NCBI GenBank assembly: GCA_039621445.1
Contig: CP154954.1
Location: forward strand, 27,454,123 to 27,518,122
Direction: 5' to 3'
DNA length: 64,000 bases
Source: Euglena gracilis
Lineage: Eukaryota
Shown here: positions 1,924-34,683 of the stretch, one piece after another
How positions within the stretch are numbered: position 1 is the first letter of the stretch
Layout: each line of letters opens with the position of its first letter
Program-made: the position numbers and the translations under genes
Notes under the pieces: generated by a model
Databases searched by the model: none
Told to the model about the DNA's origin: nothing
What the model saw: only the letters and a program-made list of their open reading frames with translations

Positions 1924-4287
1924 CCCAACTGGCTTGCCGGACGGCGGGATGGCCCCGTCCCGCGCCTGGATGTCGGCCGCCGGCACCGCCTCGGCCAGCA
2001 TGTCCACCTTGGGGGCCGCCGCCTTGCCCGCACTGCCGGACCGCACGGCGTCGACCGCCGACCCGATGCGAACAACGCAGGCCGCTTGTGCGCACCTCCC
2101 TGGGGCTCGAAACCTGCGAAGCGCAACTGCAACTTGCAATTCATTCACCCCCCCTGCCCCCCAGCTTCTCGTGTGAATTTGATTTAATTTAGAGTTCTCC
2201 AGATGGAGGTTGGAAAATGGAAGGCGATGTGTTGAAGAACATGAACCAGAGAGGGGAGACATGGATGAATGGAAAAAAAAACGTTTTGTGTAGCAGAGGA
2301 AAGGGAAAGATAGAAAAAGGTTGGGTGAGAATGTGGTCCAGAGCAAAAAAGGAGTGTTGTTTGAAGCCGGCGGCAGTTGTCACAGCCACAAGAGGCCTGG
2401 CCAGCGGTCTGCTCGTTGAAGATCACGGAGGTGGGCAGCTGGATACCGAACGTTTTGTTCAGCTCCATCGTGGTCCGGATGGCCGCCAGGGAGTGGCCGC
2501 CGACATTGAAGAAGTTGTCCTCCGGGCCTGTGGAGGCGATGAGGGCCGTTTTGGGCCGCCAGGTTGCCATACCATGCCAGTGTGCAGCCAATGAGCATCA
2601 GAGCCGACACGGAGGGCCATCCACCTGCCTGGCAACGCATCCACAGGAGGGGGGGGAGCGATGATGGATGAACAGGGATGAATCATGAATGAATGGAGGA
2701 CGGAGGAGAGAAGGGGGGGGAGCGATGAACTGCGGGTGATGATGCACTCATTTCACAGGATATGTCAAAGTGACTTGTGTTGTGCCAGGTTTTGCATGCA
2801 TTGCTTGAGGTCGTTTGGACACATTTGCCGGCCCATGCCCATGCGCTCACACCAACTGCATTGGTGTGCAGGGCAGCCCGGATCACTTCCAGCACCTTCA
2901 GCTGGGTGGGAGTGAGGTGGTCCAGGCTGGCCGTGTTCTCTGGAAGGTCCGCATCCACACTGTCCAGCGGAGGCAATGCCTGAGAGAGGGGAACAGCATG
3001 CATGAGGTAACACAGCGTTGAAATTGTCTCCTTCATTCCCGGGTCAGCAACTATAAAGAATAAACGGTTCAGGCAATTAACTTCTTTTGCTGTATAAGGA
3101 TGCAATTTCACCCAAAACGTCAAAAAAGGCGTTTTTTCAACCTTTTATTTTCGACCCTGTTCGTGCCCCAATGCGCCCCTTGGACGGCCCTTTGGCCTGA
3201 GGGCTGTCCTTGAGGGGTGGCCCTTTATGGGGAAAAAAACCAAAATCCGTTGTGAACCGCCCAAATCTGAGTTTGGACTAGGATTTGGGAAGTGCGTGTT
3301 CTGTTTGCGCCCTCCAGCTGTGAACAAGGAAAGCCAAGCACGACCTTGTGGTTAATCTTTCCATTCGGGGTCAGCGGCATCTTCTGCAGCAGAATCACCG
3401 CCTTGGGCACCATGTAAGAGGGCACCTTGGTCTTCAGGAACTCCCACACAGGATTCGATGTGAGAGCGGGAGAGGGGTATCAGTCCGGGTCCCACCCTCG
3501 ACCACAGGAGGGGGGGCATCCTCCCCACCTCAAGCCGGGACACCCCCCGGCATCGAACCCTGCTCCCGCAGCTCACCCGGCAGCGTGGCCACTTGGGCGG
3601 CCGCTGCTGCCGTGGGCACGACGTAGCACACAATTTGTTTCTCGCCGGCGCGGTCCAACGCCTCCGGCAGCCAACTCTCATGTTCAAGCACTGCCGGTGC
3701 CTCTGCAAGCATTGTGGCCGATTTCCCCAACTTAGAAAGCAACCCAATCAGAGTTAAACCAAGACACCCCGGTTGTTAGAAGAGCCCAGTGAATGCCAAA
3801 GTTAATCTGAGGGTCAGCACACAGAGAACTGGCTGGCCACACGGGTGACGCTCTCCTTCACGGCCGGGTGGGAGCTCAGCTTGGCGTTGATCTCCCCCAG
3901 TTCGATGCGGAAGCCCCGGATCTTGATCTGGTCGTCGGCCCGGCCGACGCACTCCACGTCGCCGCTGGGGAGGTAGTGGCCCAGGTCTCCCGTGCGGTAC
4001 CAGCGGTCCCAGGCCACAGAGGGTTAATGGGCAAGGGTTGCCTGGGTGATTAACAAATAAAAAGTCTTTATGGTGTGTCTGCATGCGTGTGGGCGTGCGA
4101 GTGAGTGAGAAAGTGCACGTGAATGCGGGTGGGTGAATGTGCATGTGTGTTTGTGTGTTTGCGTGTGTGCGTGCGTGCACGTGTGTGTATTGTGTAGATA
4201 GGTGTGCGCGCGCATGCATTTTGTGTGGGTGTGGTGTGGTGTGGTGTGGTGTGGTGTGGTGTGGTGTGGTGTGGTGTGGTGTGGTGT

Positions 4288-4325
<38 letters not shown>

Positions 4326-7300
4326 TTTGCATCCGTCACATTGCGGTCACGATTGTGGTCTGTGGTCACGAGTGTGTGCAGGCGGACAGTTGCGTTCCAG
4401 GCCTCCTTGGGTGGAAGGGGTTGGGAATGAACTTGGCCGCCGTGTCCTCTGGCAAACCAAGGTAGCCCTTGGAGAGATGCGGGCTGCGCACATAGATCTC
4501 TGCCGCCTCCCCCAAGCCCGCCTGGAGGCCAGCTTTGTTCAGCAGAATCAGCCCCACGTCCTTCTGGCGCATGGCACGGCCCCCAGACGAGAAATGTCGC
4601 CGATCGAAATCCGCATGAAACGTTTGGATGTTGTTCCGGGGGGATTCTGAAAATAAAGCAACTACTGCCGGTGAAGATCAAGCTTCAGAACAGCAGGTCA
4701 ACCAGCTCGAAACAGGACAAGACTTTTTTTGGAGGAAATGGTCCAGTTGGTTGGGTGTTTTGAGGAACTCAATGGAAACATGCCAAATTGAGAAACCCTA
4801 TTCCAAAATAATTAAAAACGAAATCGAAACGAACAAACAAAAAGTTCATTCAGAAGATATTTTATTTCAAAAAAAGGGGGAAATATTTGTATAAAAAAAA
4901 CAAGCACATAGCGCAGCATTTGGGCTTTCAGTGCAAGAAATTGATGATTCTACAGCTGCTAGAAAGACCCAAAAGAGAGCACTAACGCAGAGATGAATTG
5001 ACAAAATTTTCTCCAAAATGTTTCCAACTGCAATTTCTCTGGGCGAGCCTCTGCTTCAAATCCATTGCATCACCCACAAATGGGCCCTGCCCACCCACCT
5101 TGGCCTGAGGCCAGCCGTCATTTGCCGCCCCATGTGCATGCCCCGGCCGCAGGGAATGATCTCCTTCAGCTTGGCCAGCTGGGCAGCATCCCGGGGCACC
5201 TCGTAGTACCCTACCGACCGCTGGGTCTCCGTGGTGCCGAACATGTTCACCACCTGAGAGGCCGGTGGCCCGCACATGTCTGTTGACGGCAATCCAGATA
5301 ACAACCGGGCAGGACAGCTGGGGCGCCCCGCACACCTTGACGTTGGGCGCCAGCTTGTGCAACAGCAGCACGTCCCGCTTGATGAGGACGTCGCCCACGA
5401 AGAGGCACACTTTGAGGGACGGGATCGTGAAGGTGGGATCCTGGAAGGAAAGACACGGACGCTGAGAACGTCGCCAGGACGTGGCATTCACAACTGACTT
5501 TCAGGGAGCAACCGCCGCACCATCGACATTCAAAAATCACCTTCCAAATAAATGCTTACCTCGCAGTCAGGATTCGATGTACAGCAGGGAAATTGAATGG
5601 TGGGACGGTCCAGGGAAACTAAATAGTGGAACACCCCCAAAAAATGCTAATCCCCCGGAGACCATCCAGGGATTTGTGCTTATCCTTTTTGGGAGGTCAA
5701 ATTCTTATCCGTAGTTATCCGTAGTTATCCGTAGTTATCCGTAGTTATCCGTAGTTATCCTTATTTGCTAAAATACCCTTCCTGACAGGGGATATCCATC
5801 TAGAAATGGCTGCAATTGAAAAGATGAAGAGAGTTGATCATCATAAACCTCAGGAATGCCTAAAATTTGTGAAATATGACAATCTAAACAGAAAACGACA
5901 AGCATCCAAGGGCAGATGGAAACAACACTGTCCGGTGTGGGTTTTTTTAAAATCTTTCATCCACCGTTCTTCACAATCACCGTTGCAGAACATGCCACCG
6001 GCTGCCTGCCGGAGGTGAGACGACATCCTCTGTCGGCTTTTAACATCAATGACGCCGGCCAAACTGAAAGCAGCCCATCTCTTTATAGGATGTACGCTGC
6101 CAAATGAAAAATTGTAGCGAAAAAAAAGCTGAAGAAAAGGGCTGCTTGAAAGACCGTTCAATCACTGCACTAGAGACAGGAAAATAGACATGAAAAACAG
6201 TCTCAGAAAGGGCGGGCTCACGTTGAGCCCAGAAAGGCCGAATGTCTCGTCAAAAATTTTGCTTATCCATAGTTATCCGTAGTTATCCGTAGTTATCCTT
6301 ATTCAGACTTTTGGGCTCATCCGTAGTTATCCGTAGTTATCCGTTTTTATCCGTATTTGGGGGTTTCAGGCTTATCCGTAGTTATCCGTAGTTATCCGTA
6401 GTTATCCATTTCAGGATAAGCACAAATCCCTGGACCATCTGCGAGTTGCAAAGGCTTTTCAAATTGTTGCAATATCAGGAGGCTTCAATGTGCGGCATGT
6501 ATAAAGTGCACCCAGTACCATCCAACGGATGGCCTAGGGCCGTGGGGGGTCTGTCAGTAACGGGTGGGACCACCATGAGCGTCGAGCACAGCAGCAAGGC
6601 GGCTGGGCATCGACGTGTATAAAACTCGAGTTTGTTCGGGAGAAATGTCAGCAAAAGCACGCTGCAGAGCTGCCCAAATTTCGTTTCGGTTAGGGAAAAC
6701 ACATCCTTCGAGCTTTGCAAGCAGAAACACCCACAGGTGTTCGATCGGGTTGAGGTCCGGGCTCATTCTGTGTTGCAAACAGGCCTCGTTTCTTCACCTT
6801 GCATGGGGGGAGGGGGCAGGGTGTTCAATCCACCTCTTATCTGGGAGAGATGCATCTGCCCCAGCCCATCATCAGATCATTTCCCCCCATTTGCTAAGCC
6901 TGTGCCTCACACTTCACAAGGGGAACGTTTGCGCAGAACCTCATGCTGGAGATTCCAACAAGATGGTGCACCGGCCCACCGAGCAAGAAGCACGGCGTCC
7001 TGGCTGCGGGACAATGGAGTGAAGATGCTGGATAACGGGTCCTGTGCAGGCATCTGCTTGGAGTTAGTGGATCTCATCAGTTTGCCAGGCGTAGGCGTGG
7101 GGAGGTCTCCGGGGTCCACTGTGAATGATGCATTTTCCAAGCTCTCATCGAAACCGTTCCCCTTGTGAAGTGTGAGGCACAGGCTTAGCAAATGGGGGGA
7201 AATGATGGGCTGGGGCAGATGCATCTCTCCCAGATGAGAGGTGGATTGAACACCCCATGCAAGGTGAAGAAACGAGGCCTGTTTGCAACACAGAATGAGC

Positions 7301-10300
7301 CCGGACCTCAACCCGATCGAACACCTGTGGGTGTTTCTGCTTGCAAAGCTCGAAGGATGTGTTTTCCCTAACCGAAACGAAATTTGGGCAGCTCTGCAGC
7401 GTGCTTTTGCTGACATTTCTCCCGAACAAACTCGAGTTTTATACACGTCGATGCCCAGCCGCCTTGCTGCTGTGCTCGACGCTCATGGTGGTCCCACCCG
7501 TTACTGACAGACCCCCCACGGCCCTAGGCCATCCGTTGGATGGTACTGGGTACACCTTATACATGCCGCACATTGAAGCCTCCTGATATTGCAACAATTT
7601 GAAAAGCCTTTGCAACTCGCAGATGGTCTCCGGGGGATTAGCATTTTTGGGGGGTGTTCCACTATTTAGTTTCCCTGGACCGTCCCACCACTTAATTTCC
7701 CTGCTGTAAGGGATGGTGGGGTCGGACCCCAATGGTGGGAGGGGGGGATTGGACCGTGCTACTGTTTAGGTGGGGAGTGACATCCCCCTCCCACACCTGA
7801 ACTGCAGCGTGGTCCAGGTGACTAATTTTCGGCCCGGCGCTTTGTGCCAGGCCGAAAAATTTTCGACGCCAAAGCGGCCAAAACTGCATTTTTGGAACTT
7901 TTTGGGGCAAAAATTGTCAAAAATGCAAAAAAAAAAATGGCTCGCAGCAACGGAAAGAAAATTTTGATCTTTTGGGGGGTCCCCCAGGGGTCGGTCAGGA
8001 CTCCCCTGGCAGGTGGGAGGGATGGTCCGGATCCCCCCCCCAGTCCAGGAGGCGGGGGGGACACCCCCCAACTAAACCCCGTGCACCCTCCTTGTATTGA
8101 ACCCTGGTACGAAGTGTCATCTCAAATTTTTATTATCCGGGTTTTTGAAACCTCCGATATCGAGGCTGTACTGGGGTACAATCTGAAAACCACGAAAAAG
8201 CCACTGCCCTGTGGACTGAGGGTGGGACCTTCCCCAGGAACCCACAAAAATATTTTCCGGGCTTCGTGCCCGTTTCAAGCCCCCCCAGAATCCCAGCGCT
8301 TCACGCCGCAATTTTTTTTTTGGCACGGGGGTGGATGCACGTCTGTGTGCTGGCGTGCGTGCATGTGTGCAGGTGGGTTGGTGGTTGTGGGTCCAGGGTT
8401 TTCAGGTGAAATTCAAATAAGACACCTGGTGGGATTTGGGGTGGTTAGGACTCTCCCCTTGGGGGGGTCTGACCCACCAGGAGGTGAACAAGCATATGAA
8501 CCTGCATGTTCTAGCATGTGTAGGCGCGTCGCACACATGCATCCCCTCCAGGTGGCAGGTGCTATGGGTGGATGGCATTGCTCAAATAAGGGAAGGATGG
8601 ACCGCAATATGAAGGGGGGGGGGGGTGGGACCCACCCCATCTGACCACTTTGCAAACCAGGTGGCACAGCCACAAATGAAGGATTCACCCTAAAATCGAT
8701 GCTCTGGAAGAAAAAAAATGGCAGGGAGGTGCAACACGCTGACAGTGCGCTGCAGAGAACTGCAAAAGAACTGCAGAAAGAAACTGCAAAAAAGAAACGC
8801 ATAGAAAAAGAACTTTAAATTTCTGCTGTGCCTAGAGAAATTCGATTTTTTTCAAAAAAACTTTCATGAAAGAAAAAGGATGCAAAAACCTTGGCCTGAC
8901 ATTTTCAAATTTTTGCTTTTGAAAAAAGAAAAAAAATTGTTTTAAAAAAACTCCAATTCAAAAAATCCATTCCAAATCCAAAAATCCACACCAAAAAAAA
9001 CTGCAAGAAACTGCTCAGAACACATTTCCCCCCTCTGCGTGCGCATGTGCAGCTGCCCATTTTTTGGATCGTCCAATTTTTGTTTTGATGTTTCATGTCC
9101 TGCTTGGCCCAAAGGGGTGGGGGAGGCAGCGGGTTTCTTCCCCACCGGCCTAAAGAGTTTATTGCCTCTGATACGAACATGGCTGAGTGGGAATTCCAGC
9201 AACTCTATTGCCTCTGATACGAACATGGCTGAGTGGGAATTCCAGCAACTCTTGGCTTGCAGGTGACCTGTCCATCCACCCCCAGCTCCCTTTTTGCTTT
9301 CAGCAAGCACACACGTTCACACACTCACGCACACCCACCCACACAAACATCCACCCACACCATACAATTGCTTACCGACCCCCCGGGGGGGGGGGGAGGG
9401 GGGTCACTCCACTTTTTTAAAAACCAGTCAGTCACTCATTTTCAAAAAACCAGCCAGTCACTACCCCCCCAGGGGGGGGAGGTCGGCCACTCAGAAAAAT
9501 GGCCACTTTCCAGTCACTTTAGGTCATTTTAGGCCCAAAAAAATTTTCCGGCGCCTTCGGCGCCGGGGTCACTCAAGCCACTTTTGCCCACTCCTGGCCG
9601 CCCCCCCCCGCCCCCCCCCCGGGGGGGGGGGGGGGGGGGGCCCGGGCCAAAAAACAGCAAGTCACCCCGGGGGGGGGGGTCGGTCAGTGCTTAAGCAATT
9701 GCCTGACCCACACGCACCCACCCACCTACCCACACACCTCAACCGTGATCAAGATCTGGCCCATTGCAGGAGTGCAGCAGGATTGTGTGATTTGGTTGTC
9801 GTACATCCATCTGGCCAACTGCCCCGGGGTGGTGATGGTATCCTGTGTTTCCAGCAGTGGATGACCTTCACCCACCATTGAAAGAAGGACAAACAAACAA
9901 CAAAGAATACACGGGATATGGGTGGTGAAATGTTGCGTAAAAAGAATCCATGGGGAATTGTTCTGAAATCACAGATCGAAAAAAAGCGGGGGGAAAAAAA
10001 AGATGTAGAAAACGAGTTACGAAATTATGCCGAGAAAATCAAAGATTAAACCCAACACTTTACAACAGGGCATGCTCTGCTTGGAATGCAGATGGTAGCT
10101 CCAAGGAAAAGTGGGGTGAAGATATCTCGCTGCAGAGGGTCATGGGCAATTCCACTGCACATAGCAAAGCGGTCAGATTCTCCCGCTGGCAAGCAGCTGT
10201 GGACAGTTGCAACACCAGCAGAGGCAAGGGTGAAGGGCAGAAAGGTCACATTTGCTAATACAGGAAAACAATCCTATCAGTGAAAAAATCCTGTCCCAAT

Positions 10301-11994
10301 GACGGTTGCATCCTGACTCCTGGCAACCAGAGGTGCTTGGGCATGCCAAACCGCTGAGACATCCAGGGATAGAAAGCGGTGAGAGGGCTGTGCTTGCAAG
10401 ACACCTAAAGAGCAGGGGAATGATTGCACCCCCAGACGAGGTTCATCACTACAAGCCTTTGGCAAATAACAATAATTCAACTGTTCCCCTGCTGTCTCCA
10501 TTATTCCCCACCATGGTTCCCTACTATGCTCCCCCATTATGCTCCCCCATTATCACATCGCCACAAACCCAGGCTCATTTTAAAAAACCTGGGGGAGGGG
10601 GGTCCCCCACACCCACTCGGCCCGGCGCGGGACCCCCACGGGGACCCTCCCAAAATCAACCCTTCTAAGGGGACTTCCCAAAAAAAAATTGGCGAAAACC
10701 CATACATGAGCCTCCGACCCAGGGGTTTTCTTAAGCTGGAGGGTACCCCATCCCCCGGGGGGGGGGGGGGTCCAGCCAGCCAGCAGCTCAAATCCAGCCA
10801 GCAGCCCAAATTCGGGCTGCGAGCCCCCCTCCCCCCCCCCAGGGGGTCAACTGAAATAAAGTTGGGTCCAGCCCGGCCGGAGGCCAGGCCAGCTGGCCGA
10901 AGGCCGAGCTAGCCGGCCACAGGCTGGCCAGCCAACTGGGCTGCCCAGCTCACCTATCCCTGCCTTTTTTCCCCTCATCACACCTTCTTCCATCACAGCC
11001 CCCCAGCATTGATCCAGCTTTATCCATATGTGTTATCCATCACAATGTCGAACAGGCAAAAAAAATGTAGAAAATTTTGTTTTTCATCGACCCAGCCCAG
11101 AGGGGGGTCCCGGGTTGGAGCAGGGGTTTTCTTAAGGACCCCCGGGGGGTCCAGACTCCGGCTGGAAAAAAGGCTGCTGGCTGGAAATGAGCTGCTGGCT
11201 GGACCCCCCCCCCCGGGGGGTAGGGGGGGGGGGGGGGGGGCCCGGGGCTGGAGGGTCTGGCACCGCCAGGACGTAGGCTGGGGGGGGGGGGTCCCGTTGG
11301 GTCGACCGACTGACTCGGTCAGCCCAACAGAGGGTAGGTAAGGGTCGACCGACCCAAAACCAACAACTGCAGTATTACTCGCCAAATATGCGTGAATGAG
11401 CAACACAATCCATACATACATAAAGGGGATATTTCTTATAAAAACACGAGTCCGAAAGTAGAGTAAATCTGCATTCACACAAACTTGTGCTCCGCAACAT
11501 TGCAGTGTTGGGTAGACCGACATAGGTTGGTAGACCCAACATAACCCCCCCCCCACTTAGTTGCACTAAGGCTTCTTGTCTGTTTATGGCCGGCGCCAAC
11601 TTCGCTTCTGGCCCAGTTTGCTGCGTGGTGAGTGGCCAGGGACCCCTTACACCAGTCCTCTTTTGTTGCTCCCCCTGGCCGGGTGAGTAACTCTGGTGTA
11701 ATTCAGCGCTGTGCGCCCAACATAACCCCCCCCCCGGCCTACATCGTTGAGCCCACCGCCAGGGGGGGGGGGGGGTCATCTGAGTTAAAAAGAAGCCTGC
11801 GCACATCAATGCTGAATTTCAATTGCGAAAAAAAGGCATCCACAGAGAAGCAGCAGACCACGGAGGTGGCAGGCCCTTTTATTTACCAACCAGCGGTGAT
11901 GCCCTTGAATAGATAAATGCCCAGGTGGGCAGGGGTTGGTGGCTCCCGCAATGAGCTGGGGTTGGCCCTGCCTGAACCGTTAGGCACACGGAAA

Positions 11995-12043
<49 letters not shown>

Positions 12044-15000: not shown

Positions 15001-18000
15001 CCCTCAGAAATTCGCCAAAATGCCATTTGGGGTATTTTTGGGGGTCTAACTATTTGTATTTGTTTGTCTTATTTGAACCACAATAAATGATGATGATGAG
15101 CACGTGCTCAATGCGCCTCAATCACACGCTTTTACTTACCTCTCAGTCCAGAGAAGATGCATTGCACTCTGAAAATGACATTCTTGAGAATTATCACCAT
15201 GCTGGCGATCCGCGCATTCCTGTTATTTTTCTGATTCACACATCCGAGATCATTCATATGTTCTGAGAAATGACATATAGCTAACACTCACTATATTTTG
15301 CCCGGTCTCTCCTTTTTTCTGCCTCCCGTCCCAAAATATTTTGCACACTCGTTTCAAAATTTTTGCCCCCCGTCCAAAAAACGCTGCCCCCTGTCCATTC
15401 TATTTTGCCCAAAAAACCTCGAATTTTTGCCTCTGCCCTCCAAATTTTTGCCACCTCCAAAAACAGTCTCCCGCCATTTTCAGTTGAAATGTCTGCACAG
15501 AATGTTCCACAATGTTCCACAGAATGTTCCACCCCTACACACTCACATTGCACATTGTGACATTTTAAACACCATTTTTGCATGTCGAAAAAGAAAAAAA
15601 GAATTTCAATTTTGATGCATTTCTGAATGGTGTGGTGTTGTTCAATTGTGCCCAAATCTGTTTTCACCCAATGAGCTCACAGACCACAGCCTTTTTCTGT
15701 TTGTGTTTGGATTGCTTGACTTGGTCAGACGGTCCATGGATCCATGATGCATTAGAACGGAGACAAGGCACAGGGGGGGGAGGGGGGGTCCGAGGGGTGG
15801 GTTGGAAGTTGTACAGGGGGGGGGGGGGGGGGGCAGAAAATCACAACTGTACTGCCTACTCCCGAGACAGTTGCGACATTTTTCGTCCAATTGAGGTTGC
15901 CTTTGTTGTACAAGCATTTTGTGCAGTTCAGAGTTCAGATTGCATCTTGCGGGAAGATGACCAATGCTGTTGCATTTGTGATTGATCCGTGACCCGAGAA
16001 TCGCGCCTTCAAGTTTCATACAAAGCAGCAACCTTCATCACTTTAGCATTTCGTTTCTTTTCATCATTTCAGTCTGCTTTTTGATGTTGCGGTTTTGGTT
16101 GCTTTTCATAAATTTTCCGGTTGAAACCATTGAAAATTTTCCTTGACATGTCAAAAACTCCCCTCCTTCCATTTGGACAACCAAACCCCTTTTTGGCACC
16201 TTCATACCCAAAAATGGCCAAAAAACTTGTCCCCTAAAAATAGTGCCGAAAATTGGTGCATTTCCACATCCAAAACAGAATTTTTTGGGCCATTTTTTCA
16301 AAAATGGCCCAAAATGCATCCCAAAAAATGTGATGGTCAAGAAAATCCTAACAAAATTCCCTTTCAAAAATGAAAAAAATGACCAATTTCGGACATAAAA
16401 AACACCCAAAAATGCCCACTTTCGGACCAAAAAGCTTTTTTTGTTTAAAAATGGCCTAAAAATGGACAAAAATAGCCACGTTTTTGACCGGAAAGTCACC
16501 GATTTTAGGATGCGTGCCGCCCTTCTCGTGATGGGATGCACATCATGGATGCAGCCTCCCGATCCAACGTGGCATACTTCCAGCGTGACCCCCCCGTGAC
16601 CCCCCCCCCGTGACCCGCACCACCCCCAAAATTTCACAGAATGCTGAATGATAGTCAATGTTTTCATTTTAAGCACTCAATTTTTTTCATCTGTCTTGGG
16701 GGGGTTGGAAGTGGGGGGAGGGGGGTCCCAGGAGGGGGGGTTGGAACTGTACAGGAGGGGGGGGGAGGGGGGGTCCCAAGGTTTGACCAACCGTACTGCC
16801 TTGTCTCCAACAATATCTATCTGTGAATACAAATAGGTCAAAAAGGCAGTTTTTAAAAATAATTACAGCTGGAAGGCAGTGGGATTGGTTCTTTTGTTAC
16901 CCGTCCCTCTCATTACAAAGACTCGGAATATTTTTACTGTGCCTCTTTGTGTGGAATGACCCTCGCACATGGACCAAAAGTGCCTTCACCCCTCATTGCC
17001 AAACACGCTGTGCGTTGTGTTCACCGTTTCCCTCAACCTGCACCCCAAACTCTCTCGTGTGAATCACAACCATTACGTTGCTGTTGATTTTTACTGTTTA
17101 GGCATTCATCCGCACCTCTCATTCTTTCCCCAAACACAGTTGAAGGATTTTTTTATAGGGTATCAAACAAATTTCCTTTTGGAGAGCTGTCTGCAACATC
17201 CTGTGAAATTTCAATTGTTATTATTTGGATTGATGGTCACATTTATTTGGCGTATTTCTGTTAATCTATGCTGATTCTGTTGGACGTTTCCTTTTCACAT
17301 TAACGGGAAAAATTTTTTTACAGTTGGCAAAAGTTTCGGGTCTCAAGGGCAAAAGTGATGGGATTTGTGGCAAAAAATTTTACCCGGGTGGCAAATATTT
17401 CTTGGAACCCTGGCAAAAGTGAGGGGTCCAGGAGGCACCATATTTTGGGGCGGGGGGCAGAATTTGGAGGGGTTAGCTACAATTGCAGCAAAATAGGTAC
17501 AAATTTTCTGGTTTCTGTCAAACCGGAATTTTGTCTCTGAAAAGAAAGCATGCAAAATCACGCATTGAGTATTGGGTCACCAGCACTTTTTCTGTGAAAA
17601 ACCCTGGTGCTGGTCCATACGACCGGGGGGGGGGGGGTGATCCGGAATTGTCAAAAAAAGCAGGGTCGGGGCGGGTGGGGACACCCCATCCCTTGAAACA
17701 CAGGCACCCTGCTTATGTCGAACCTGGCTGGGCAGGCTTCTTTTCAAGCCAGCCCCCCACCAGGAACTGCCAATGCTGTACTTGAAGGACTGGTGGGGGT
17801 TGACCCCCCCACCTGGGAGGTGGGGAGGGGTCGGTCAAATTCACTGAAAAATCGGTGTCCCCGGAAATGGACCTGGTATTGGGGGGGGGGGTCAGAGTGA
17901 AGACACCCCACTGTTCCCAAACCCTTCAGCCGAAACTCCATTGCCACGGGCGGGTGTTTAGATGGGGGTTTGGAGGTGGGGATGTGGTTGGGGGTGGTCG

Positions 18001-21000
18001 ATCCCACCCGCCCACCACCCACAGGCAGGGGGAGGGAGATTCCAGTTTCCAAAAAAAAATTTCATTCGGATAGGGGTTTTATTCCACAAAATTTGGGATC
18101 TTTCCAGTTCTTCTGGTAGATTTCTGCTTGACAGGACTTAGAGAATTTTCAACTCCTTGGGGATTCTTTTTCATTTTGCAACATTGGTGGATATTTAAAT
18201 TCTGAATCGCATTTTGTGATTTTGGGAACATACCAATTCCAAAAACATGGAATTTGTTGACCAAAAACTGAAAAAAAAAGTCAAATTTTGACGAAAACTT
18301 TGGTGTCAGGAAGAAACGAGGTCCTAATGCAGATTTTATAAGTTCGAATTTTTCCCCCAACAGAAGAAAAAGAAATTCAAAAAAGGCAAAAACTGGCCGA
18401 AATTGCCAAAATTATGCCTAAATCAAGAGAAAATATGAAAAGAAATTCTAGTGGTCCAAAAAAGCCGCAGATTCACCTAGGCTTCCATTTCTTTTTTAAA
18501 ATTTCCATGCGTTGCGCTGAAAATTTTATTCTGGCCAATCCCACATATTCCTATTCCAATTTATTCTAGTTCATTCCGGTTAATTCCAGTTTATTCCATA
18601 CCGGAATATCTCCCCTGCATAGGGGGAGCACTAAAAGTACCCATTAAAAAATCCCTCAACCCCAATTTTCCACCATTTAAGACCTTTTCTTAAAAATTCA
18701 ACACAGCTGGCCCAGATTTAAGCAGTTGTATGGTCCAACTCCTCATATGTCACCGACAAGCCTTGGTAGGAGATGGCGATGCGCTGTGGAGAGCACCGTA
18801 AGGGCATGAGGCTGCCATTGTTAACCCCCCCATTTATGCCCCCCCCCCCCCCCCCCGGAAAAATCAGAAGAAATCCATTTGTACCGACCCCCCCCCATTT
18901 ATATCAATACCTACCCCCTCGCTTGCATCCGGGCCCACCAAGGGAAACCACAACAAAGCACAAAAACTCGCAATAAACAAAAAAGAGCATTCAGGCATCC
19001 CCAGCATCCACTTTTTGCCAAAATATGAACAGATTGACTGTTGTTTATTGGGGGTGATGTGAAACATGGGAGAGCATGAATGCACATCGCTTCGTCCCTG
19101 GCCCCCCATGTCAAGCACCTTAACCCATTTATTCTGACCCCCCCCAGGATCTCAATAATGTGAAAATGATACACCAACTCGTCGGTGTTAATGGGGGGGT
19201 CACATGCAATTTTGAGAAACGGTTTGGACTTGAGAGCATTTGCCCGAGGTGACGTAGCCACGAAGACAGGTCAGGGGCCACTGATTGTGTTTCCGGAGTG
19301 GTGCACTTTTTTTTTCCAGACTGGCAGGCTGGAAGTGGTCGAGGGAACCCACTGTAGCTGCCTCGAGGCCACCACCTCCTTGCCAAACATCATGCACCCC
19401 ACAACGTCGGGAACAGAACTGAAATTGTGTCTAGTTCTGAATGTTATCAATTACCGACATATCAACAAGAAATTGCATCAATTTTCTGAGGCCCTACACA
19501 CCACCAGTGCTGACGGACCTGTGGATGCTTCTCTGCATTCGCATGAAAGCAGTGTGGGATTGGCCCGGGGAACTCGGTGTCCTGAGGGGCGGTGGCATCA
19601 GGCAGCACTTGCTTCGCCTGCGCGGTGATGACGGAGTAACTGTAAATCCCCTGCTCGGGGTTTGCACTGGTCAATGCCAGGCCAGAGCTGAGAATCGTGC
19701 ACCCTGTCTCACCAGCATGATGCACATTTGGTTCACGTCCTGTCTGCTGCTGTCATTCCCACCGTTTCTGGAACACACACACACACACACACACCAGGGT
19801 TCGATATAAGGACAGGTGGGGGGGGTGGTCCGGACCCCCCCCTGCGGGCCAGGAGGGGGGGGGGGGGTGGGGGGACACCCCCCCCACCTAAACAGGTGCG
19901 CGGTCAGGGTGGCTGAATTTCGAAAATTTTTGACCCCTCAAAACGACCAAAAGTGCCATTTGGGCACTTTTTGGGCAAAAATGTGCCAAAAATGCAAAAA
20001 ATTTTCGGCGCGAAGCGCCGGAGGAAAAAATTTACCCTTTTGGGGGGGGTCCCGGGAACCCCCCCGAGGGTCGGTCCGGACCCCCCTTGCAGGTGGGGGG
20101 GGTGGTCCGGACCCCCCCCCCCTGCGGGCCAGGAGGGGGGGGGGTGGGGGGGATACCCCCCCCACCTAAACCATGTACGCCCTCCTTATATCGAACCCTG
20201 ACACACACACACAAAATACAAAACCACAAAATTTTTTTTCATTGTCCTGGATTTTTTAAGGCTTTCTGTCATAACCAAGCTCATCTGCGCATCAATTCCA
20301 AATGCGGCATGAACAAGGGTGGGTGGGTGGGGGGGTTAGACAGAAAGAGGGTGCGGGAATTGCAAATTTTCCTCGTTAGAGGCCAGAATTCAGATTTGGC
20401 ATTGGGAATGAGATCTGCGGGGGCGATACGGGGAGAGGAGAAATGCAAACACCTTTTTCCATGATTTTGGGAGTTTGGTTTTATTTTAAGCATAAAATAG
20501 TATTTTTGGCCAAAAATCCAATAATGGCCAGACAAAGAGATACAATTTTTTTTAAAATTCGGAATTGTGAGCAGAACTCAAAAAACCGCTGAAATAACAA
20601 CATGGTGGTGGAAAAAAGCTCCCCCACCACAAATTCAACAAAATGGAGAACGGCAAAAAAATGCATTAAAAAAACCAATGCAAAAGCCTGAACTGCTCCA
20701 GGAGGAGGAGGTATTGCTGCAGCAGGTCTGCAACAAACTCGGCCGTGAACAAAGCGGTCTGGTAGTGCAGGCGCAGGGTCTCTCCCACTACTTGCAGCAG
20801 CAACTCATATGGCGACTGCCCCTCCTGCAATGAACGAGAGAATGGACAGAGGAAGCACGCTGATTGTATCAAATCACTCGCGAAGCGCAGAGCAAGGCTC
20901 GACTTTAAACCATGTGGGGCTTTGGGGTAAGAGACCAACGCATACTGGGCAAACAAAGTGAGGGATGGAGCGGTCAACTCAACCCCCACAGTCTTTGTGG

Positions 21001-24000
21001 TCTTAATGTGCATGCTATGTACGGAAAACAGAATTTTTGAGCTTGGGGGAGTAAGAGACCAAGTAAGACACCAGAGAGTCACTGTTCACCTCCATCCCCC
21101 TTTGGCAAATCCAATGGCCTGGAATGAATGAAAAGCTTCTCATAAACTGCAAGAATGCACACGGAGGGGCAGGTCATCAGGGCTTCTCCATGAACGTATG
21201 GCAAAAAAAAACACACCGCGTCTAAACCACTGCCCGTTGAGGAAAACACTGCAGTAAAGAGTGGCGCTTCCTCAGCACACAATTGCTTGATTGCTCCAAA
21301 GGAAAGAGCTAGATTTCATCGGTGGAATTGCAAGTCTTGCATTGCAAGTTGAACAGGGAACCATTTTGAGATCCCAAAAATTATTCAGGACTTTGCGGTT
21401 GTTTTGTGCCAAATATAAGGGGTAACCTCAGGGTGTCCGCTCGTACCTGTCCCCCCCAGGTGGCCAGGACCTCAGGGTTCTTTTTAAGGCGCCTGAAAAC
21501 CATTTTTTAAAACACAAACTAATTTTTGTCAATGGCTTAAAACTCCTTAAAATTTTTTAAAAATCTGGGAAAATTTTTCGAAATTCGAGCCGAAAAATGA
21601 AGTCGCAAAATCTCGGCAAGAATAAGCCAGTTCCGGGGGAAGAACTGGCATCGCTGGAACATCATCCACAGACCCAAACTCGAAAAAGTGGGGGTTTCAA
21701 CATTTTTTTCTTGATTTTGGGCTTGAATCAGGTTTTGCCTTACCGTCCGGGGGGGGGGGGGGGGGTGGGTGCTATAGGGCCTGCCCTAGCAGGCACACCC
21801 CCCCCCCGGGTAGGGGTATGGGGGGGACCCAGAAAATTTTCATTGAAAAGGGCCTTTTCCGGGCCCTCGGTCGGAGGGGGTGCCTGCTATGGGCAGGTAC
21901 CCCCCAAAACCCAACCCCCCCCCCGGGGGGGGTGGATGGGGGGTATAGGGGGCCTGCCCCTAGCACCCCGCCCCGCGTGAGGTAGGACCCCGACTAAGCA
22001 CAGGCGTGGCTTGAATTCCCTCGGAAAAATAGACGCCTGAAAATTTAAAAATGCAAGAAAAATTTTGAAAATTACGCCTTACAAAAATGCTCCTGAACGC
22101 CCTCTCCCTGTTTTTCTAACAGGGAAAATGGTCAACTTTGTTCTGGGTGCTGCTCACCCCCAGGCAAGGATGTTGGGACCAACCAACCATCATTTGGTTG
22201 TTTGGAGTTGGCTGGCACTTGCGTGTCCCTGGCTCACTCCTGCCGCCGCCTCGATGTCATTCGGCGGCAGCGCTGGGTGGAGGAATGTGAGAATGAGGCG
22301 CACCGCCGGTCCCACCCAGCCCTGCCCAGGGGCAGCACCGCGTCCTTCGCCACCTCCAGGTGCGCCTTGGCCGCCGCCGCCACCGTCGCGAACGTCCGCG
22401 CCGCCGCCGTGGAACTGCTGCTGAAGTCCATGGGGAGGGGCAGCACCGCCGCGCCCACGCTGTGCAGGGCATCCCCGACGATGACCTTGTTTTCCGCCGA
22501 CAGCCGGTGGACGTGGAGGGCGAAGAGGGAGGCCAGGTGGGCTTCATCGGGGAGGCAGCCGGAGGGCAGCTTGGCCTCCACAAACCTTGATGACTGCTGG
22601 GGCAAGCCTTTGGCTTCCAGCAAACCCATTGAAACCGTGTATTGGGGCTCTGGCTTCACGCCCGAACCGGCGTTCTGGACGCCGGGTCGGTGGAGAAAGT
22701 TCTGCGCCGAACCGGTGTCCAGAACGCCGGTTCGGGCGGGAAAAACGGCGTCCTGGGGACCGAAAATGAAAAGTGCCCAAAAAACAAAAACTCGACCCCT
22801 TTTTGAGCTTGTTATTTTGTGCTTCGACTGACCCGGGAAGTTTCCTCCACTCACAGAGCCCACACCCCATGCCCCTCCATCATTCCACATATTTGGCCAC
22901 GAATTATTGCATTATCTGGCAATTTACCCCACCACCCCGGCCACCCCCCCCAACACTTACCGTCATCCTTGCCCCATCTCCAAACATGCTAAACCCCCAC
23001 ATCTTTTCCATTGCATGCAATTCCTGGCGAACTAATTCCCACGCAGCCCTCAACATGCTCCTTCATCACCATTTGGTTTTGCGCTGTCACAATTTACCTT
23101 CCCGAAAGCCCAGCCGAATCATTTCCAATTCTTACCCCCCCCCCCCCAGGCGCACCCTTTTCCACCCTATAACCCCCTTCCCCCCAAACCCCTTGCACAC
23201 CCTTTTCTCCGCTCTCCAACACCCACCCCTCCGCTCGCGTTATCCCCCAACCATCCGCCCCGCACCCCACCCCCTCCCGACCCAAACCTTATCTTATTAT
23301 ACCCCTTGGCTACTGTCTCACCCCCCAAACCCCCCCGCGCCCCCCTCCTCTAACCCCCAAAAGACCCTCCCTTACCCTCCTCCCTCCAAAATGGTTTGTA
23401 GACATGAGGCAATCATATCTGAGCACTTCTTGGTATTTGGCCAGAAATTGGGGTATTTTGTGGAACAATTTCCATTTGGCCAAATCTGGGGATTTTCTGA
23501 AATAGAATACCATGCAGCAGGGCTGAAATCTAAGGCCATCTAAAACCCTTGAGAAGGGTTATTGATCAAGGGGCAACATGGCAGGTGAACAGTGGATTTT
23601 GGAATTTGCGCAAAGGGTCCAAAAATCGTAATTCTGAAAAAACCCAAGGGGTCCAGCTAAAATTTCTTAACCATAATTCTGAAAAACCCAGGGGAGGGTC
23701 CAACCAATTTTGAAAACACCCAGGGGGGGCCAAAATTTCCCAACCGTAATTACCCCCCCCCATAATTGACACCCCCGAAACCCTCCAAACCCCCCAGGTA
23801 GTGTCAATTATGGGGGGGGTGTCACAATTATGGGGGGGGTCCGAACGGACAAGGCAAAATACAAGGGACTCCTGACAAACCCCTTGGTCCGTGGAAATAA
23901 CTCATTTTAGCGGCATGCCAGACACATGCCGGAGCTTGAAACACTCAAGGTAGACATTTGACAAAGCAAAAGCAAGGCGGAAAAGACGCGAGCGGCTGAA

Positions 24001-26198
24001 AAAATTTTCGGTCGGGGGGGGGGGGGGAGTCAATCATGGGGGGGTGTCAATTATGGGGGGGGGGGGGTAACATTTCCCAACAATTTTGAAAAATTCCCGG
24101 GGGTCCAGCCAAAATTTCCCAATTGTACTTCTGAAAAACCCTAGGGGGGGCTCCAGCCAATTTTTTTTTTCAACAGTGTTTGTGAAGAAACTTAGCCAAA
24201 ATATCTGAACCGGAATTATGAAAAAAGGGGGATCAAACCCAAACCATAATTCTGGAAAAAAAACCAGCGGGGTCCAACCGAAAATTCGGCATTGCAAATC
24301 TGAAAAAATCTGGGGGGGGGTCCAGCCAAAATTTCCCAACCGTGATTCTGAAAAAACCTAGGGGTGGTCCAACCAAAAAAATTTTCCAAATCGTAATTCT
24401 GAAAAAAAAACCTTTCGATTGATGGGTAACCTGGCATCAGACGGATGAAAACTTCAATCGGCCGATCGACATGGCCATGAGCCCAAAGGATCCCAAAAAT
24501 GCCCAAAAATGTTCAGAAACTGGGTATTTAGGGCGAAATTGGCCTTTATTCCTTGAACGCCGATTCGGGTGTGAAGCCAGAGCCCCTAATCCACGGTTTC
24601 AACAACTGTGTCCAGAACGCCGGTTCGGGCGTGAAGCCGTGTTCCAGAACGCCGGTTCGGAACCCGAACCGAACCGAACCGAACCGGCGTTCTGGAACAC
24701 GGCTTCACGCCCGAACCGGCGTTCTGGACACAGTTTTCGTATCAGAAACACTGTTTCAGTGGACCCACATTTGGAACTTCCCTAAACTGCACGCATGTCC
24801 CGAATCAGGGGTTTTTTTAAGACCGGGGGGGGGGGAGGGGGGGGGGCCGCCCCACCCCCCCCCCCCCGACCCGGGGGGGCCCCCCCGGGGGGGGGGGGGG
24901 AGGGGGGTCCGGGGGACCCACAAAAAATGGCCGAAAAATCGCGAAAAGTGCTAAAAATAGAATTTTTTCGGCGCCTGCGGCGCCGAAAAGTATATCCCAC
25001 CCCCCTCCGGGGGGACCCCCCCCCAGGGGGGGGGGGAGGGGGTCCGGCGGACCCACCCACCCTACCCCCCCCCCCCCCCCCCCCCGGGGGTCCAAACTTA
25101 AAAAAATCCCTGGTCCCGATGGGAACACAAAAGCTTGAACGCAATTTGTCTGGCCTTGGAAGGTCTGTAGGCAGCTTGGCCACAGCCCGTGGCTCAGCAA
25201 GGTACTGCCTCCAATACTCCAGCCCAGACACCTGCAAAACGGATGGAAAATCAATCATCCAAATAACCCGGAAATGGTCCGGATGGGTCCAAATGTGGGT
25301 AGTCTCCCCCATCAAAGTGGCCGCCCTCCGGGCGCCGTGGGACCCCAAAGCGGCGAGAGGGATTCTTTGGGGGGGGGGGTCAATTTGGCGACCTTTGCCG
25401 CCAAAAGAAAGCGGCCACTTCGAAGGGGGTATACCAAAATTTGCCCAAAAAAAATTGGCAAATTTTGGCAAATTGCCAAAATTGACAATTGGACACTGAT
25501 CGACGGTGAGACTCTCCTGGGCCTTCTTTCTCGAGGGGTGGTTTGGGACGCGGGACGCAGGGGGACGCGGGGGACACGGGGCAAACACCCCCTCAATGAG
25601 AAGTGGGGGGGTTTAATGAGGGACTTTCAATTGGGGGGTCCAAAAATCAATCGCCAGCAAAAATGTGCACCTGTCATATTGTTGGTGGTCGGTCGACTAG
25701 TCGGCCCGACCACCAGTGGGGTCGCCAGAGGTGCCACCAATGGTCGCTGGCGACTGGTCTCCAGCACTCACCAAAAAAAATCAATCACCAATTTTCCACA
25801 ATCAGCCAGTGTATTTGTGTTTGTTTGTGTGTGTGCGCGCGCGCGCGTGTGTGTGTGTGTGCGTGCGTGCGTGCGTGTGTGTGGGTGTGTGTGCGTGCGT
25901 GTGTGTGCGCGCGTGTGTCATCCCACTCCACGATTTCACCACCAAAAGAAAATTGAAACTTATCAAAATTTTCCCTTTGAAAAAAACTGTGTTCAACCCG
26001 CCAAACGCCTGCCCTGATATTTGTGGCCAAAAACAAAATTCTGGGTCGGGATCCGTGGTCTGCAAAAACACTTGTTTTTTGTGAATTTGTTTTGCAAGCT
26101 GTTGAAAAGGGTTGCCTGTCATGTCCTTGGCACACCTCTCTCCTTCTTTTGGAGGGGCTGGGGTTTGGGCTGTCCCTTGGGTGCTTGCTGCCAGTCAT
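1924..26198 (-). CDS. LYS2: Alpha-aminoadipate reductase (L-aminoadipate-semialdehyde dehydrogenase; NRPS-like), 3' part (reductase domain) outside window
   Basis: Predicted exons (minus): 26198-26136, 25231-25141, 22598-22328, 22262-22223, 21273-21217, 20824-20694, 19672-19519, 18783-18736, 12906-12781, 12526-12388, 12204-12044, 10404-10343, 10184-10083, 9849-9738, 5440-5336, 5253-5138, 4564-4413, 4025-3839, 3662-3566, 3443-3345, 2979-2853, 2527-2403, 2073-1924. They join into one open frame of 905 codons. Motifs: [101 protein letters not shown], carrier FFNVGGHSL. These are collinear with fungal Lys2 as I recall it. Exon 1 and the exon 4/5 junction are least certain. Confidence 0.93.
2074..2402 (-). 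other. LYS2 intron 22, nonconventional (329 nt)
   Basis: GGC-CAGGCCTCTTGTG ... CACAAGCGGCCTG-CGTT; 12/13 pairs; removal gives [14 protein letters not shown]. Confidence 0.82.
3444..3565 (-). other. LYS2 intron 19, nonconventional, MITE-derived (122 nt)
   Basis: GAG-CAGGGTTCGATG ... CATCGAATCCTG-TGTGG; 12/12 pairs; removal gives [16 protein letters not shown]; TIRs and interior match the MITE family at 5568/19795/63059. Confidence 0.9.
3663..3838 (-). other. LYS2 intron 18, nonconventional (176 nt)
   Basis: GGC-CAGCCAGTTCTC ... GAGAGTTGGCTG-CCGGA; 12/12 pairs (2 G-U); removal gives [15 protein letters not shown]. Confidence 0.88.
4026..4412 (-). other. LYS2 intron 17, nonconventional (387 nt)
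   Basis: ACC-CAAGGAGGCCTGG ... CCAGGCAACCCTTG-CCCATT|A (6-nt tail); removal gives [18 protein letters not shown]. Confidence 0.78.
4220..4322. repeat. (TGTGG)n + (TG)n microsatellite in intron 17
   Basis: Directly visible tandem repeats. Confidence 0.95.
4565..5137 (-). other. LYS2 intron 16, nonconventional (573 nt)
   Basis: GCA-CATGGGGCGGC ... GCCGTGCCATG-CGCCA; 10/11 pairs; removal gives GRGMKDVGL. Confidence 0.87.
5582..7706. mobile_element. Foldback Tc1/mariner (IS630-like) derivative with transposase fragments
   Basis: TA|CAGCAGGGAAATT ... AATTTCCCTGCTG|TA; ~550-bp inverted arms each encoding [11 protein letters not shown]...; unique centre encodes [11 protein letters not shown]. Confidence 0.88.
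5667..6432. mobile_element. Non-autonomous TIR element with 7-bp TSD and (TTATCCGTAG)n subterminal repeats
   Basis: TIR CAGGGATTTGTGCTTATCCT; TSD GACCATC; the empty site is visible in the opposite arm (7615-7640). Confidence 0.9.
9160..9251. repeat. Perfect 46-bp tandem duplication
   Basis: TATTGCCTCTGATACGAACATGGCTGAGTGGGAATTCCAGCAACTC x2. Confidence 0.92.
9361..9705. mobile_element. hAT-like MITE
   Basis: Ends CATACAATTGCTTA / TAAGCAATTGCCTG; perfect 8-bp TSD ACCCACAC; related ends at ~1071-1084 and ~45231-45244. Confidence 0.85.
9850..10082 (-). other. LYS2 intron 13, nonconventional (233 nt)
   Basis: AAG-CAGAGCATGCCCT ... AGGTCATCCACTG-CTGGA; removal gives [13 protein letters not shown]. 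Confidence 0.75.
10185..10342 (-). other. LYS2 intron 12, nonconventional (158 nt)
   Basis: GCC-CAAGCACCTCTGG ... CCACAGCTGCTTG-CCAGC; 11/13 pairs; removal gives QRFGMGESDRF. Confidence 0.85.
12527..12780 (-). other. LYS2 intron 9, nonconventional (254 nt)
   Basis: GTC-CGGGGATCGCTGG ... CCAGCCATTCCTG-ATGCC; 12/13 pairs; removal restores LKAGAAY. Confidence 0.88.
13498..13745. repeat. Minisatellite, ~30-bp unit (AAAGTGTCCCTGTAAAGTGTCCCTGTAACC)
   Basis: About 8 copies built from GTGTCCCTGT subunits. Confidence 0.92.
13959..14565. mobile_element. MITE-like element
   Basis: Inverted ends AACCCCCCCCCCATTTAAACTGACCC / GGGTCGGTTTAAATGGGGGGGGTT; internal AAACCGACCC and AAATTAGG repeats. Confidence 0.65.
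15759..16808. mobile_element. Non-autonomous TIR element with 3-bp TSD (PIF/Harbinger-like)
   Basis: AAC|GGAGACAAGGCA ... TGCCTTGTCTCC|AAC; second member at 41288-42340. Confidence 0.75.
19673..20693 (-). other. LYS2 intron 6, nonconventional (1021 nt)
   Basis: GTT-CAGGCT ... GGCCTG-GCATT|G; removal gives LEQTSANPEQ. Confidence 0.8.
19795..20200 (+). mobile_element. hAT-like MITE (CAGGGTTCGAT family) in intron 6
   Basis: Perfect 18-bp TIR CAGGGTTCGATATAAGGA; inserted in (AC)n with ACACACAC on both sides; ~80-bp internal direct repeat. Confidence 0.92.
21274..22222 (-). other. LYS2 intron 4, nonconventional (boundaries +/-3 nt)
   Basis: CAAGTGC..CTCCAAA at the 5' end pairs with TTTGGAG..GCAATTG at the 3' end; no AG acceptor. 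Confidence 0.6.
22263..22327 (-). other. LYS2 intron 3, nonconventional (65 nt)
   Basis: GGG-CAGGGCTGGGTGG ... CCACCCAGCGCTG-CCGCC; 12/13 pairs; removal gives [12 protein letters not shown]. Confidence 0.85.
22630..24760. mobile_element. Dispersed repeat with GAACCGGCGTTCTGGAC subterminal motifs
   Basis: Collinear second copy at ~47890-49070; nested poly-C/G MITEs. Confidence 0.65.
24806..25112. mobile_element. hAT-like MITE near the 5' end of intron 2
   Basis: CAGGGGTTTTTTTAAG ... CTTAAAAAAATCCCTG; flanks GTCCCGAAT / GTCCCGAT. Confidence 0.8.
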
Positions 26199-27831: not shown

Positions 27832-28638
27832 CAGGGAATTTCTTGAGCCGGAGGGTACCCTACCCCCCGGGGGGGGGGTCCAGCCAGCCAGCAGCTCAAT
27901 TCCAGCCAGCAGCCAAAATTCGGGCGGGGACCCCCCCCCCCCCCCCCGGGGGGTCAAGTGAAATAAAGTCGGGTCCAGCCCGGCCGGAGGCTGGGCCAGC
28001 CGGCCGCAGGCCGGCCCAGCCGGCCGAAGGCCGGCCTTCCAATTGTGCTGCCCAGCTCACCTGTCCCTTCATTTTTTCGGTACTTGTCTGTTATCGCACG
28101 ACAGACCCCCTTTTGGTTATCGCACGACGCCCTTTTTTTTTTTTTTTGTTTTTTTTTTTTTTTTTTTTTTTTTCCTTTTTTTTTTTTTTTTTTTTTGGTT
28201 AAATATGGGGGATTGAAGGAGCAGGGTTAGGTGCGCACAGCCATGTTGCGCTAAATAGCCTGTGCGCACCTAACCCACTCCTTAAATAACCCCATAGGAC
28301 TAAAAATAAGGTGTCGTGCGATAACCAAAAAATAAGGTGTCGTGCGATAACAGACAAGTACCATTTTTTCCCCTCATCGCAGCTTCCTCCATCACGGCCC
28401 CCCAGCCTTGACCTAGCTCCACCCATAAAAATGTCGAAAATGGCAAAAATGTGTCAGAAAGTTTTGTTTTTTTTTTCGTCGACCCAGCCCAGCCCAGCCC
28501 CCTCCGGCCCCGGACCCCCTCCTCCCCCCCTCCCTCCGGGCGGGGGGGGGGTTTCAGCCAGCAGCTCAAATCCAGCCAGCAGCCTTATTGCCAGCCGGAG
28601 GCTGGACCCCCCCCCGGGGGTCCTTAAGAAATTCCCTG
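27832..28638. mobile_element. hAT-like MITE nested in the 27708 element
   Basis: CAGGGAATTTCTT ... AAGAAATTCCCTG; perfect 8-bp TSD GTTGCGCT; related sequence at ~10720-11200. Confidence 0.9.
28079..28362. mobile_element. Short copy of the 27708 family nested in the 27832 MITE
   Basis: GGTACTTGTCTGTTATCGCACGAC ... GTCGTGCGATAACAGACAAGTACC; 8-bp TSD ATTTTTTC. Confidence 0.88.

Positions 28639-34638: not shown

Positions 34639-34683
<45 letters not shown>

Follow-up and report, generated by a model that had tools for sequence, protein, structure and literature searches.

Nonconventional introns of a Euglena gracilis NRPS-like gene and their likeness to neighbouring inverted-repeat elements with 8-bp target-site duplications

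The nonconventional (NC) introns of Euglena are removed according to a splicing code, N3-CDG...CH'G-N5-6|R, that has been defined by knock-in experiments (PMC12501133). When such introns are knocked into a non-native exon they are spliced with a strict 5′ spacer of 3 nt, an optimal 3′ spacer of 5 nt and a preference for purine, and the purine at the exon start (position 6 of the 8-nt flanks considered below) is a published requirement (PMC12501133). An origin of euglenid NC introns from elements resembling MITEs (miniature inverted-repeat transposable elements) was proposed in 2013, by authors who remarked that transposable elements had not yet been identified in euglenids (PMC3935182). A newly gained NC intron in the gapC gene of E. 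agilis has eight-nucleotide direct repeats, which were read as possible traces of double-strand-break repair (PMC4770533), and a 2024 review depicts NC introns with terminal inverted repeats (TIRs) and repeats resembling target-site duplications (TSDs; PMC11282704). The accessible text of the knock-in study names MITE-like elements only as a possible source, without TSD length or family (PMC12501133). The locus described here bears on the origin of these introns and on the reason for the 3+5 spacing. It is a nonribosomal peptide synthetase (NRPS)-like gene with 13 NC introns, situated in 64,000 nt of Euglena gracilis DNA (positions 27,454,123 to 27,518,122 of contig CP154954.1, assembly GCA_039621445.1; hereafter the window, in whose coordinates all positions are given).

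Four things are observed at this locus: the spacing geometry of the NC introns, a pair-specific identity of their flanks, the 8-bp TSDs of free elements that carry the same terminal triplets, and the similarity of introns 19, 8 and 4 to families of these elements. Taken together they lead us to think it likely that the NC introns of the gene descend from small MITE-like TIR DNA transposons, with termini of the form CA-N...N-TG, which inserted into exons, and that splicing measured from the terminal hairpin removes the element plus one TSD length.

The gene and the geometry of its nonconventional introns

The gene lies on the minus strand (1923-26198) and has 22 introns in the window, of which the NC ones, numbered 5′ to 3′ along the gene, are introns 2, 3, 4, 6, 8, 9, 12, 13, 16, 17, 18, 19 and 22. 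Its structure was drawn from transcript contigs, raw RNA reads, an exon-by-exon alignment with the protein P0001 and the Pfam domains of that protein. P0001 (eukprot:EG_transcript_671, 1295 aa) is the best database match of the gene, is aligned up to residue 902, and has, besides a partial condensation domain, AMP-binding (adenylation), carrier and reductase domains. Nothing in the window matches its residues 903-1295, which hold the reductase domain, and the transcript contigs continue past 1923, which places the gene's 3′ part beyond the window. A further intron begins at 1922.

RNA joints were mapped over 1850-21849 with the contig sets X1, X2 and X4 (presumed to be RNA) and the raw RNA reads X20, and 15 of the 179 joints are considered here. 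Every one of the 15 is supported by all three contig sets and by 19-52 X20 read starts. They comprise eight NC and seven GT-AG joints on the minus strand and coincide with introns 5-10, 12-17 and 19-21, and none of the eight NC joints has GT/GC-AG borders in any placement that the transcript allows. Introns 18 (joint 3659>3836) and 11 (GT-AG, 10404>12044) come from contig-piece coordinates, with which the P0001 residue joins agree. Intron 4 is given by a loose contig end at 21272 that continues, with one mismatch, as window 22231-22260, and by P0001, while introns 2, 3 and 22 are defined by P0001 residue joins alone; for intron 22 an exon piece starts at 2402. Roughly half of the raw RNA reads, and some contig sets, show single-base differences in exons at 3949, 3958, 5212, 9834, 12464, 12817, 19576 and 20773, and P0001 differs from the window at several residues; both look like the mark of allelic or paralogous copies.

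For each of the 13 NC introns the transcript allows a single placement that combines a head of 3 nt, a C-N-N triplet pairing with an N-N-G triplet, a tail of 4-6 nt and a purine as the first base of the next exon; none of the eight conventional introns tested (intron 1 was left out) has such a placement. The head is 3 nt in all 13, and the tail is 5 nt in ten, 6 nt in one and 4 nt in two. The sum of head and tail, which is independent of where an ambiguous junction is drawn, is thus 8 in ten introns (3, 4, 6, 8, 9, 12, 13, 16, 18 and 19), 7 in two (2 and 22) and 9 in one (17). A sequence-only reading of the window, whose introns are exactly those recovered here, had arrived at the same 3+5 spacing for nine of these introns (3, 6, 8, 9, 12, 13, 16, 18 and 19), all nine correctly, and at a sum of 9 for intron 17, where 3+6 is indeed found; of the three introns to which it gave a sum of 7, introns 2 and 22 are borne out and intron 4 is not, as RNA gives 8. 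The first base of the downstream exon is a purine in every case (G in ten, A in three). Strict C-D-G/C-H'-G triplets close the stem in seven of the 13, and the other six have CAA/TTG, CAT/ATG or CAC/GTG. As to the TIRs of the NC introns, a comparison of the terminal 14 nt at either end gives 4-12 matching positions, with 10 or more in eight of the 13.

Direct repeats at the intron flanks

We compared the 8 nt preceding the 5′ triplet with the 8 nt following the 3′ triplet, and took as controls mismatched intron pairs (derangements), shifted registers and conventional introns. The matches earlier claimed for the nine 3+5 introns (7, 5, 5, 5, 4, 4, 3, 2 and 1, or 36 of 72 positions) were reproduced, as was the claim of the same purine at position 6 on both sides in all nine (G in eight, A in one). 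With intron 4 included, the ten sum-8 introns are identical at 40 of 80 positions compared to a derangement mean of 24.6, and none of 100,000 derangements reaches 40. Leaving out position 6 gives 30/70 compared to 16.6 (p of about 5e-5), leaving out positions 5-7 gives 23/50 compared to 11.8 (p = 2.6e-4), and leaving out both intron 19 and position 6 gives 24/63 compared to 14.7 (p = 0.0027). Twenty shifted registers yield 15-33 identities of 80, against 40 in the register of the hairpin base. Conventional introns (n = 8) have a flank identity of 32/64 compared to 29.3 (p = 0.21), that is, no pair-specific excess, and the identity at their borders comes from the splice-site consensus and not from the pair. 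Because the pair-specific excess of the NC introns survives the controls while conventional introns show none, the NC flanks are true direct repeats, pair-specific and in the hairpin-base register. The excess also extends past the purine positions. Outside the sum-8 class the flanks agree at 1/7 (intron 2) and 4/7 (intron 22) for a sum of 7, and at 4/9 for a sum of 9 (intron 17).

Following the gene from its 5′ end (all introns on the minus strand), intron 2 (22599-25140) has 3+4 spacing and CAAGC..GCTTG ends, and intron 3 (22263-22327) is a 65-nt intron with 3+5 spacing, CAG..CTG ends, a TIR matching at 12/13 and flanks identical at 4/8. Intron 4 (21271-22228; 3+5, CAC..GTG) also has flanks of 4/8. 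Intron 6 (19673-20693, joint 19671>20693; 3+5, CAG..CTG, flanks 2/8) contains a free element, the family A copy at 19795-20200. Intron 8 (12907-18735, joint 12901>18731; 3+5, CAT..ATG, flanks 5/8) is 5.8 kb long with many nested repeats, and its stem has only 3 bp at closure, beside an asymmetric internal loop; a tandem array with units of about 24-25 nt lies inside it at 13500-13740. Intron 9 (12527-12780, joint 12525>12780) is 3+5 with CGG..CTG ends, which involve a G-U wobble, and flanks of 5/8. Between introns 9 and 12 lies conventional intron 11, which has a (CA)n run at its 5′ end (12001-12040). Intron 12 (10185-10342, joint 10183>10342) is 3+5 with CAA..TTG ends and flanks of 1/8, and intron 13 (9850-10082, joint 9847>10081) is 3+5 with CAG..CTG ends, flanks of 3/8 and two candidate closing CTGs.

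Towards the 3′ end, intron 16 (4565-5137, joint 4563>5137) is 3+5 with CAT..ATG ends and flanks of 4/8. A 14-mer at 2837 on the minus strand, near the 5′ end of conventional intron 21, is one base off the 5′ terminus of this intron, which could be chance or the remnant of a related element. Intron 17 (4026-4412, joint 4024>4412; 3+6, CAA..TTG) holds a microsatellite at 4230-4320, (GGTGT)n followed by (GT)n. Intron 18 (3663-3838), placed by contig-piece arithmetic and a P0001 join, is 3+5 with CAG..CTG ends, a 12-bp terminal helix and flanks of 5/8. The best-preserved flanks, 7/8, belong to intron 19 (3444-3565, joint 3440>3563 with 5 ambiguous letters; 3+5, CAG..CTG), and intron 22 (2074-2402), whose 3′ boundary comes from the P0001 join, is 3+4 with CAGGCC..GGCCTG ends. 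The helix of introns 6, 13 and 19 leaves room for 1-2 more pairs on its outer side.

Free elements in the window and their likeness to the introns

Eleven free TIR elements were found in the window, eight with an 8-bp TSD (five perfect, two at 7/8 and one in a microsatellite) and three with a perfect 7-bp TSD. They include all ten that had been listed from the sequence, each with TIRs and the TSD length given to it (seven of 8 bp, three of 7 bp). At their ends stand the triplets CAG, CAA, CAT and TAA with CTG, TTG and TTA, a set that overlaps with the triplets closing the intron stems, and among them CAGGG or CAAGG termini occur together with 8-bp TSDs. Three families, A, B and C, have at least three copies each in the window. 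Family A includes the element at 19795-20200, with CAGGGTTCGAT termini, whose flanks lie in an (AC)n run so that its TSD length is uninformative, and that at 63059-63484 with a TSD of 7/8. Family B, with CAGGGTTGACG, is represented by 29729-30150 and 44360-44672, both with a perfect 8-bp TSD, and by 54531-55180, with 7/8. Perfect 8-bp TSDs also flank the family C element at 9361-9705, with its CATACAATTGCTTA-type terminus, the family C-like element at 43680-45244, which contains 44360-44672 and is additional to the earlier list, and a CAG..CTG element at 27832-28638. The three elements with a perfect 7-bp TSD have CAG..CTG (5667-6432), TAA..TTA (34342-35220) and CAA..CTG (46255-46708) ends.

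One link between an intron and a free family is that of intron 19. Removal of its 3+5 nt leaves an element, 3449-3562, whose ends match the family A terminus (19795-20200 and 63059-63484) at 11/11 and 10/11 over the first 11 nt. When its subterminal arms were compared with the corresponding arms of the free copies, four of ten comparisons gave scores reached by only 3, 3, 16 and 35 of 1000 shuffles. To judge from this resemblance, intron 19 is a short copy of family A with a 7/8 TSD. For a wider view we set positions 4-14 of all 26 termini of the NC introns in register against 22 free ones, with 354 shifted windows as the control. A match to a free terminus at 8 or more of the 11 positions is reached by seven of the 26 termini and by 9 of the 354 controls, and one at 10/11 by two termini and by no control. 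Family C, which has an 8-bp TSD, is the match of these two, which lie at the 5′ end of intron 8 and at the 3′ end of intron 4. Among the NC introns, it is for introns 19, 8 and 4 only that a relation to multi-copy families holds.

A corresponding link between the sum-7 introns and families with 7-bp TSDs is not supported. The sequence-only reading had placed introns 2, 4 and 22 in a 7-bp class, but one of the three, intron 4, had been misassigned, and the family matches are weak and contradictory: the 5′ terminus of intron 2, with a sum of 7, has its best match in a 7-bp family (8/11 positions), and so does intron 3, with a sum of 8. The chances seem to us even that the tail classes of 4, 5 and 6 nt reflect tolerance of the machinery together with later insertions and deletions, and not families with 7-, 8- and 9-bp duplications. 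In the knock-in experiments a 3′ spacer longer by one nucleotide works, one shorter by one gives about 20% of wild-type transcript, one longer by two is weaker and one longer by three fails (PMC12501133); with a published tolerance of 4-6 nt the tail classes can be explained equally well without families. The poor flanks of the two sum-7 introns and the 4/9 of intron 17 fit this explanation, as do the reassignment of intron 4 and the best match of intron 3. What speaks for families instead is that the window has free elements whose TSD is a perfect 7 bp and whose termini are of the CA..TG type, that intron 2 matches one of their families best, and that a single-base insertion or deletion in the tail would shift the frame unless the cut had moved too.

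Other repeats of the window are of several kinds. The elements at 27708-29304 and 28079-28362, one nested in the other, are flanked by perfect 8-bp duplications, although their termini are not CA..TG but of the GGT(G/A)CTTGTCTG type; duplications of this length are therefore not limited to CA..TG elements. A third copy of family A, at 5568-8106, is interrupted by a nested element at about 5584-7709, which has TA on both flanks and TIRs of about 60 nt beginning CAGCAGGG, contains the 7-bp-TSD element 5667-6432 and carries in its interior two inverted copies of one open reading frame (ORF). This nested element may be Tc1/mariner-like, to judge from its TA flanks and an ORF motif; a 79-aa piece has no Pfam match. 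At 26690-27470 a repeat of roughly 90 nt, present in inverted copies, encloses a 138-aa ORF without a Pfam family (26832-27245, minus strand). The stretches at 38.9-40.6 kb and 50.2-51.6 kb are long, nearly identical and have the same ORF translations, and are probably a large repeat or a segmental duplication.

Proposed origin of the introns and comparison with known systems

The events that we propose are simple. A small TIR element would insert into an exon and make an 8-bp TSD. NC splicing would then measure from the base of the terminal hairpin, with one cut 3 nt ahead of the first base that pairs and the other, in front of a purine, about 5 nt beyond the last, and would remove the element plus 8 nt. 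As an insertion with an 8-bp TSD adds exactly the element plus 8 nt, the reading frame that preceded the insertion would be restored. While an insertion is fresh the two copies of the duplication are identical, so that nothing but the sum of head and tail counts, and this would explain both the scarless removal and the decaying in-register repeats: over time the intronic halves of the two copies would drift, leaving the partial identity of the 8-mers. Most of the other NC introns would have arisen likewise, and the 3+5 rule and the 8-bp stagger may be mutually adapted, by filtering or by co-evolution, so that the splicing code could mirror the cut geometry of the transposase. The earlier interpretation of these introns as a TIR element plus one TSD is supported for the 8-bp class, through the flank identity and the family matches of introns 19, 8 and 4, and is not supported for the 7-bp class.

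Several results weigh against this explanation. The evidence base is one gene with 13 NC introns, and an ORF scan of 25.3-64 kb gave no clear second multi-exon gene for replication. The registers of the closing stems were chosen partly by the expected CA..TG pattern and the known code, and not by an unbiased fold. Within the window the family matches of seven of the ten sum-8 introns do not rise above control level, and even for intron 19 six of the ten arm comparisons are not significant, nor is the local alignment of its interior with the free copies, where 34 and 38 of 500 shuffles reach the score. Flank identity is weak in introns 12 (1/8) and 6 (2/8), one of the shifted registers is as high as 33/80, and the flanks of the family A copy at 5568-8106 are identical at only 2/8. 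No transposase was found, the eight repeat-borne ORFs tested from the window having no Pfam family. Matches of terminal 14-mers anywhere in the window with up to 2 mismatches had to be rejected as evidence, since 211 of 300 random CA-14-mers match too; such matches being common in a window so rich in repeats, only terminal matches in register were counted.

The weak flanks of introns 6 and 12 and the lack of family matches for most introns would suit a different account, in which the agreement of lengths is a coincidence: 3+5 would be a property of the splicing machinery alone, the direct repeats would stem from another route of intron gain, such as staggered double-strand-break repair as for gapC intron 4, and only an occasional NC intron, like intron 19, would be a transposon. 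Such repair has been proposed for the 8-nt repeat in gapC (PMC4770533), and direct repeats are described as abundant genome-wide at conventional introns of E. agilis as well (PMC12501133). Here, however, the identity peaks in the register of the TIR base (40 compared to 15-33) and is absent at conventional introns once the consensus is controlled for (p = 0.21); moreover, in-register matches tie three introns to free TIR families with 8-bp TSDs, and free elements of the same locus carry the same triplets and the same TSD length. We therefore regard coincidence as unlikely. Descent might also have run in the opposite direction, the free elements being NC introns that escaped and re-entered the genome via excised circular RNA, and NC introns are indeed reported to be excised as circles (PMC11282704, PMC12501133). 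Yet the free copies have locus-specific and mostly perfect duplications of fixed length, as from a staggered DNA cut, and they lack the internally joined 3+5 nt expected of a circle-derived copy, which makes this route highly improbable to us.

Insertion of TIR elements into exons, our preferred explanation, can be taken a step further, with more hesitation. NC splicing might serve to erase, at the RNA level, one class of TIR transposons to which it is tuned, such that exonic insertions with a purine at position 6 of the duplication would be harmless at once, and the machinery and the stagger may have co-evolved or may share ancestry. We hold this to be possible and somewhat doubtful. If true, it would explain why most Euglena introns are NC and why their spacers are 3 and 5. 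The locus offers a concrete case for such thinking, an RNA-verified NC intron that belongs to a family of which free copies with 8-bp TSDs exist, and the equality of head plus tail with the TSD is a simple quantitative rule, testable genome-wide and by the EgGSL2 knock-in assay.

As to what kind of transposon might be involved, elements of the hAT type, such as maize Ac/Ds, make 8-bp TSDs and have termini beginning CAGGG or TAGGG, the termini of the superfamily conforming to YARNG. Families A and B and the element at 27832 are alike in having 8-bp TSDs and CAGGG-type termini. The likeness is one of termini and TSD, and the elements may also belong to P-like or other superfamilies with 7-8-bp TSDs. 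Among the eight ORFs tested from the window, no transposase with a hAT dimerisation domain was seen. A Ds-derived intron appears in the reference list of the 2013 proposal (PMC3935182).

Seen against the published splicing code (PMC12501133), the introns of this gene are alike in spacing and purine in 13 of 13, with the triplets at +4..+6 and -8..-6, and differ in that only seven of the 13 are strict and that two have a 4-nt tail, which was inefficient in that study. The 3+5/purine geometry is already known and a MITE/TSD-like origin already proposed, and what this locus adds is that the lengths are equal and that a concrete family can be linked to an intron. In the literature searched, which did not extend to supplementary tables such as the intron tables of PMC4770533 and PMC12501133, we found neither a TSD length for euglenid elements nor an NC intron assigned to a named transposon family, and no mention of head plus tail being equal to the TSD.

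A parallel outside the euglenids is found in the introner elements of Micromonas and Aureococcus, which were reportedly described by Huff et al. in 2016 as DNA transposons that generate introns. There too a TIR element, together with its TSD, turns into an intron and leaves no scar when it is spliced out. The difference is that introners are spliceosomal, with the duplication supplying one splice site, whereas the NC introns here use a hairpin-measured pathway. With the hypothesis of a MITE origin (PMC3935182, PMC4770533, PMC11282704) our observations share the inverted repeats at the ends of the introns and the TSD-like repeats at the junctions. What is new, compared to the accessible text of those papers, is the presence beside the introns of free TIR families with a measured 8-bp TSD, an intron that is a member of one of them, and a head and tail that together equal the length of the TSD.

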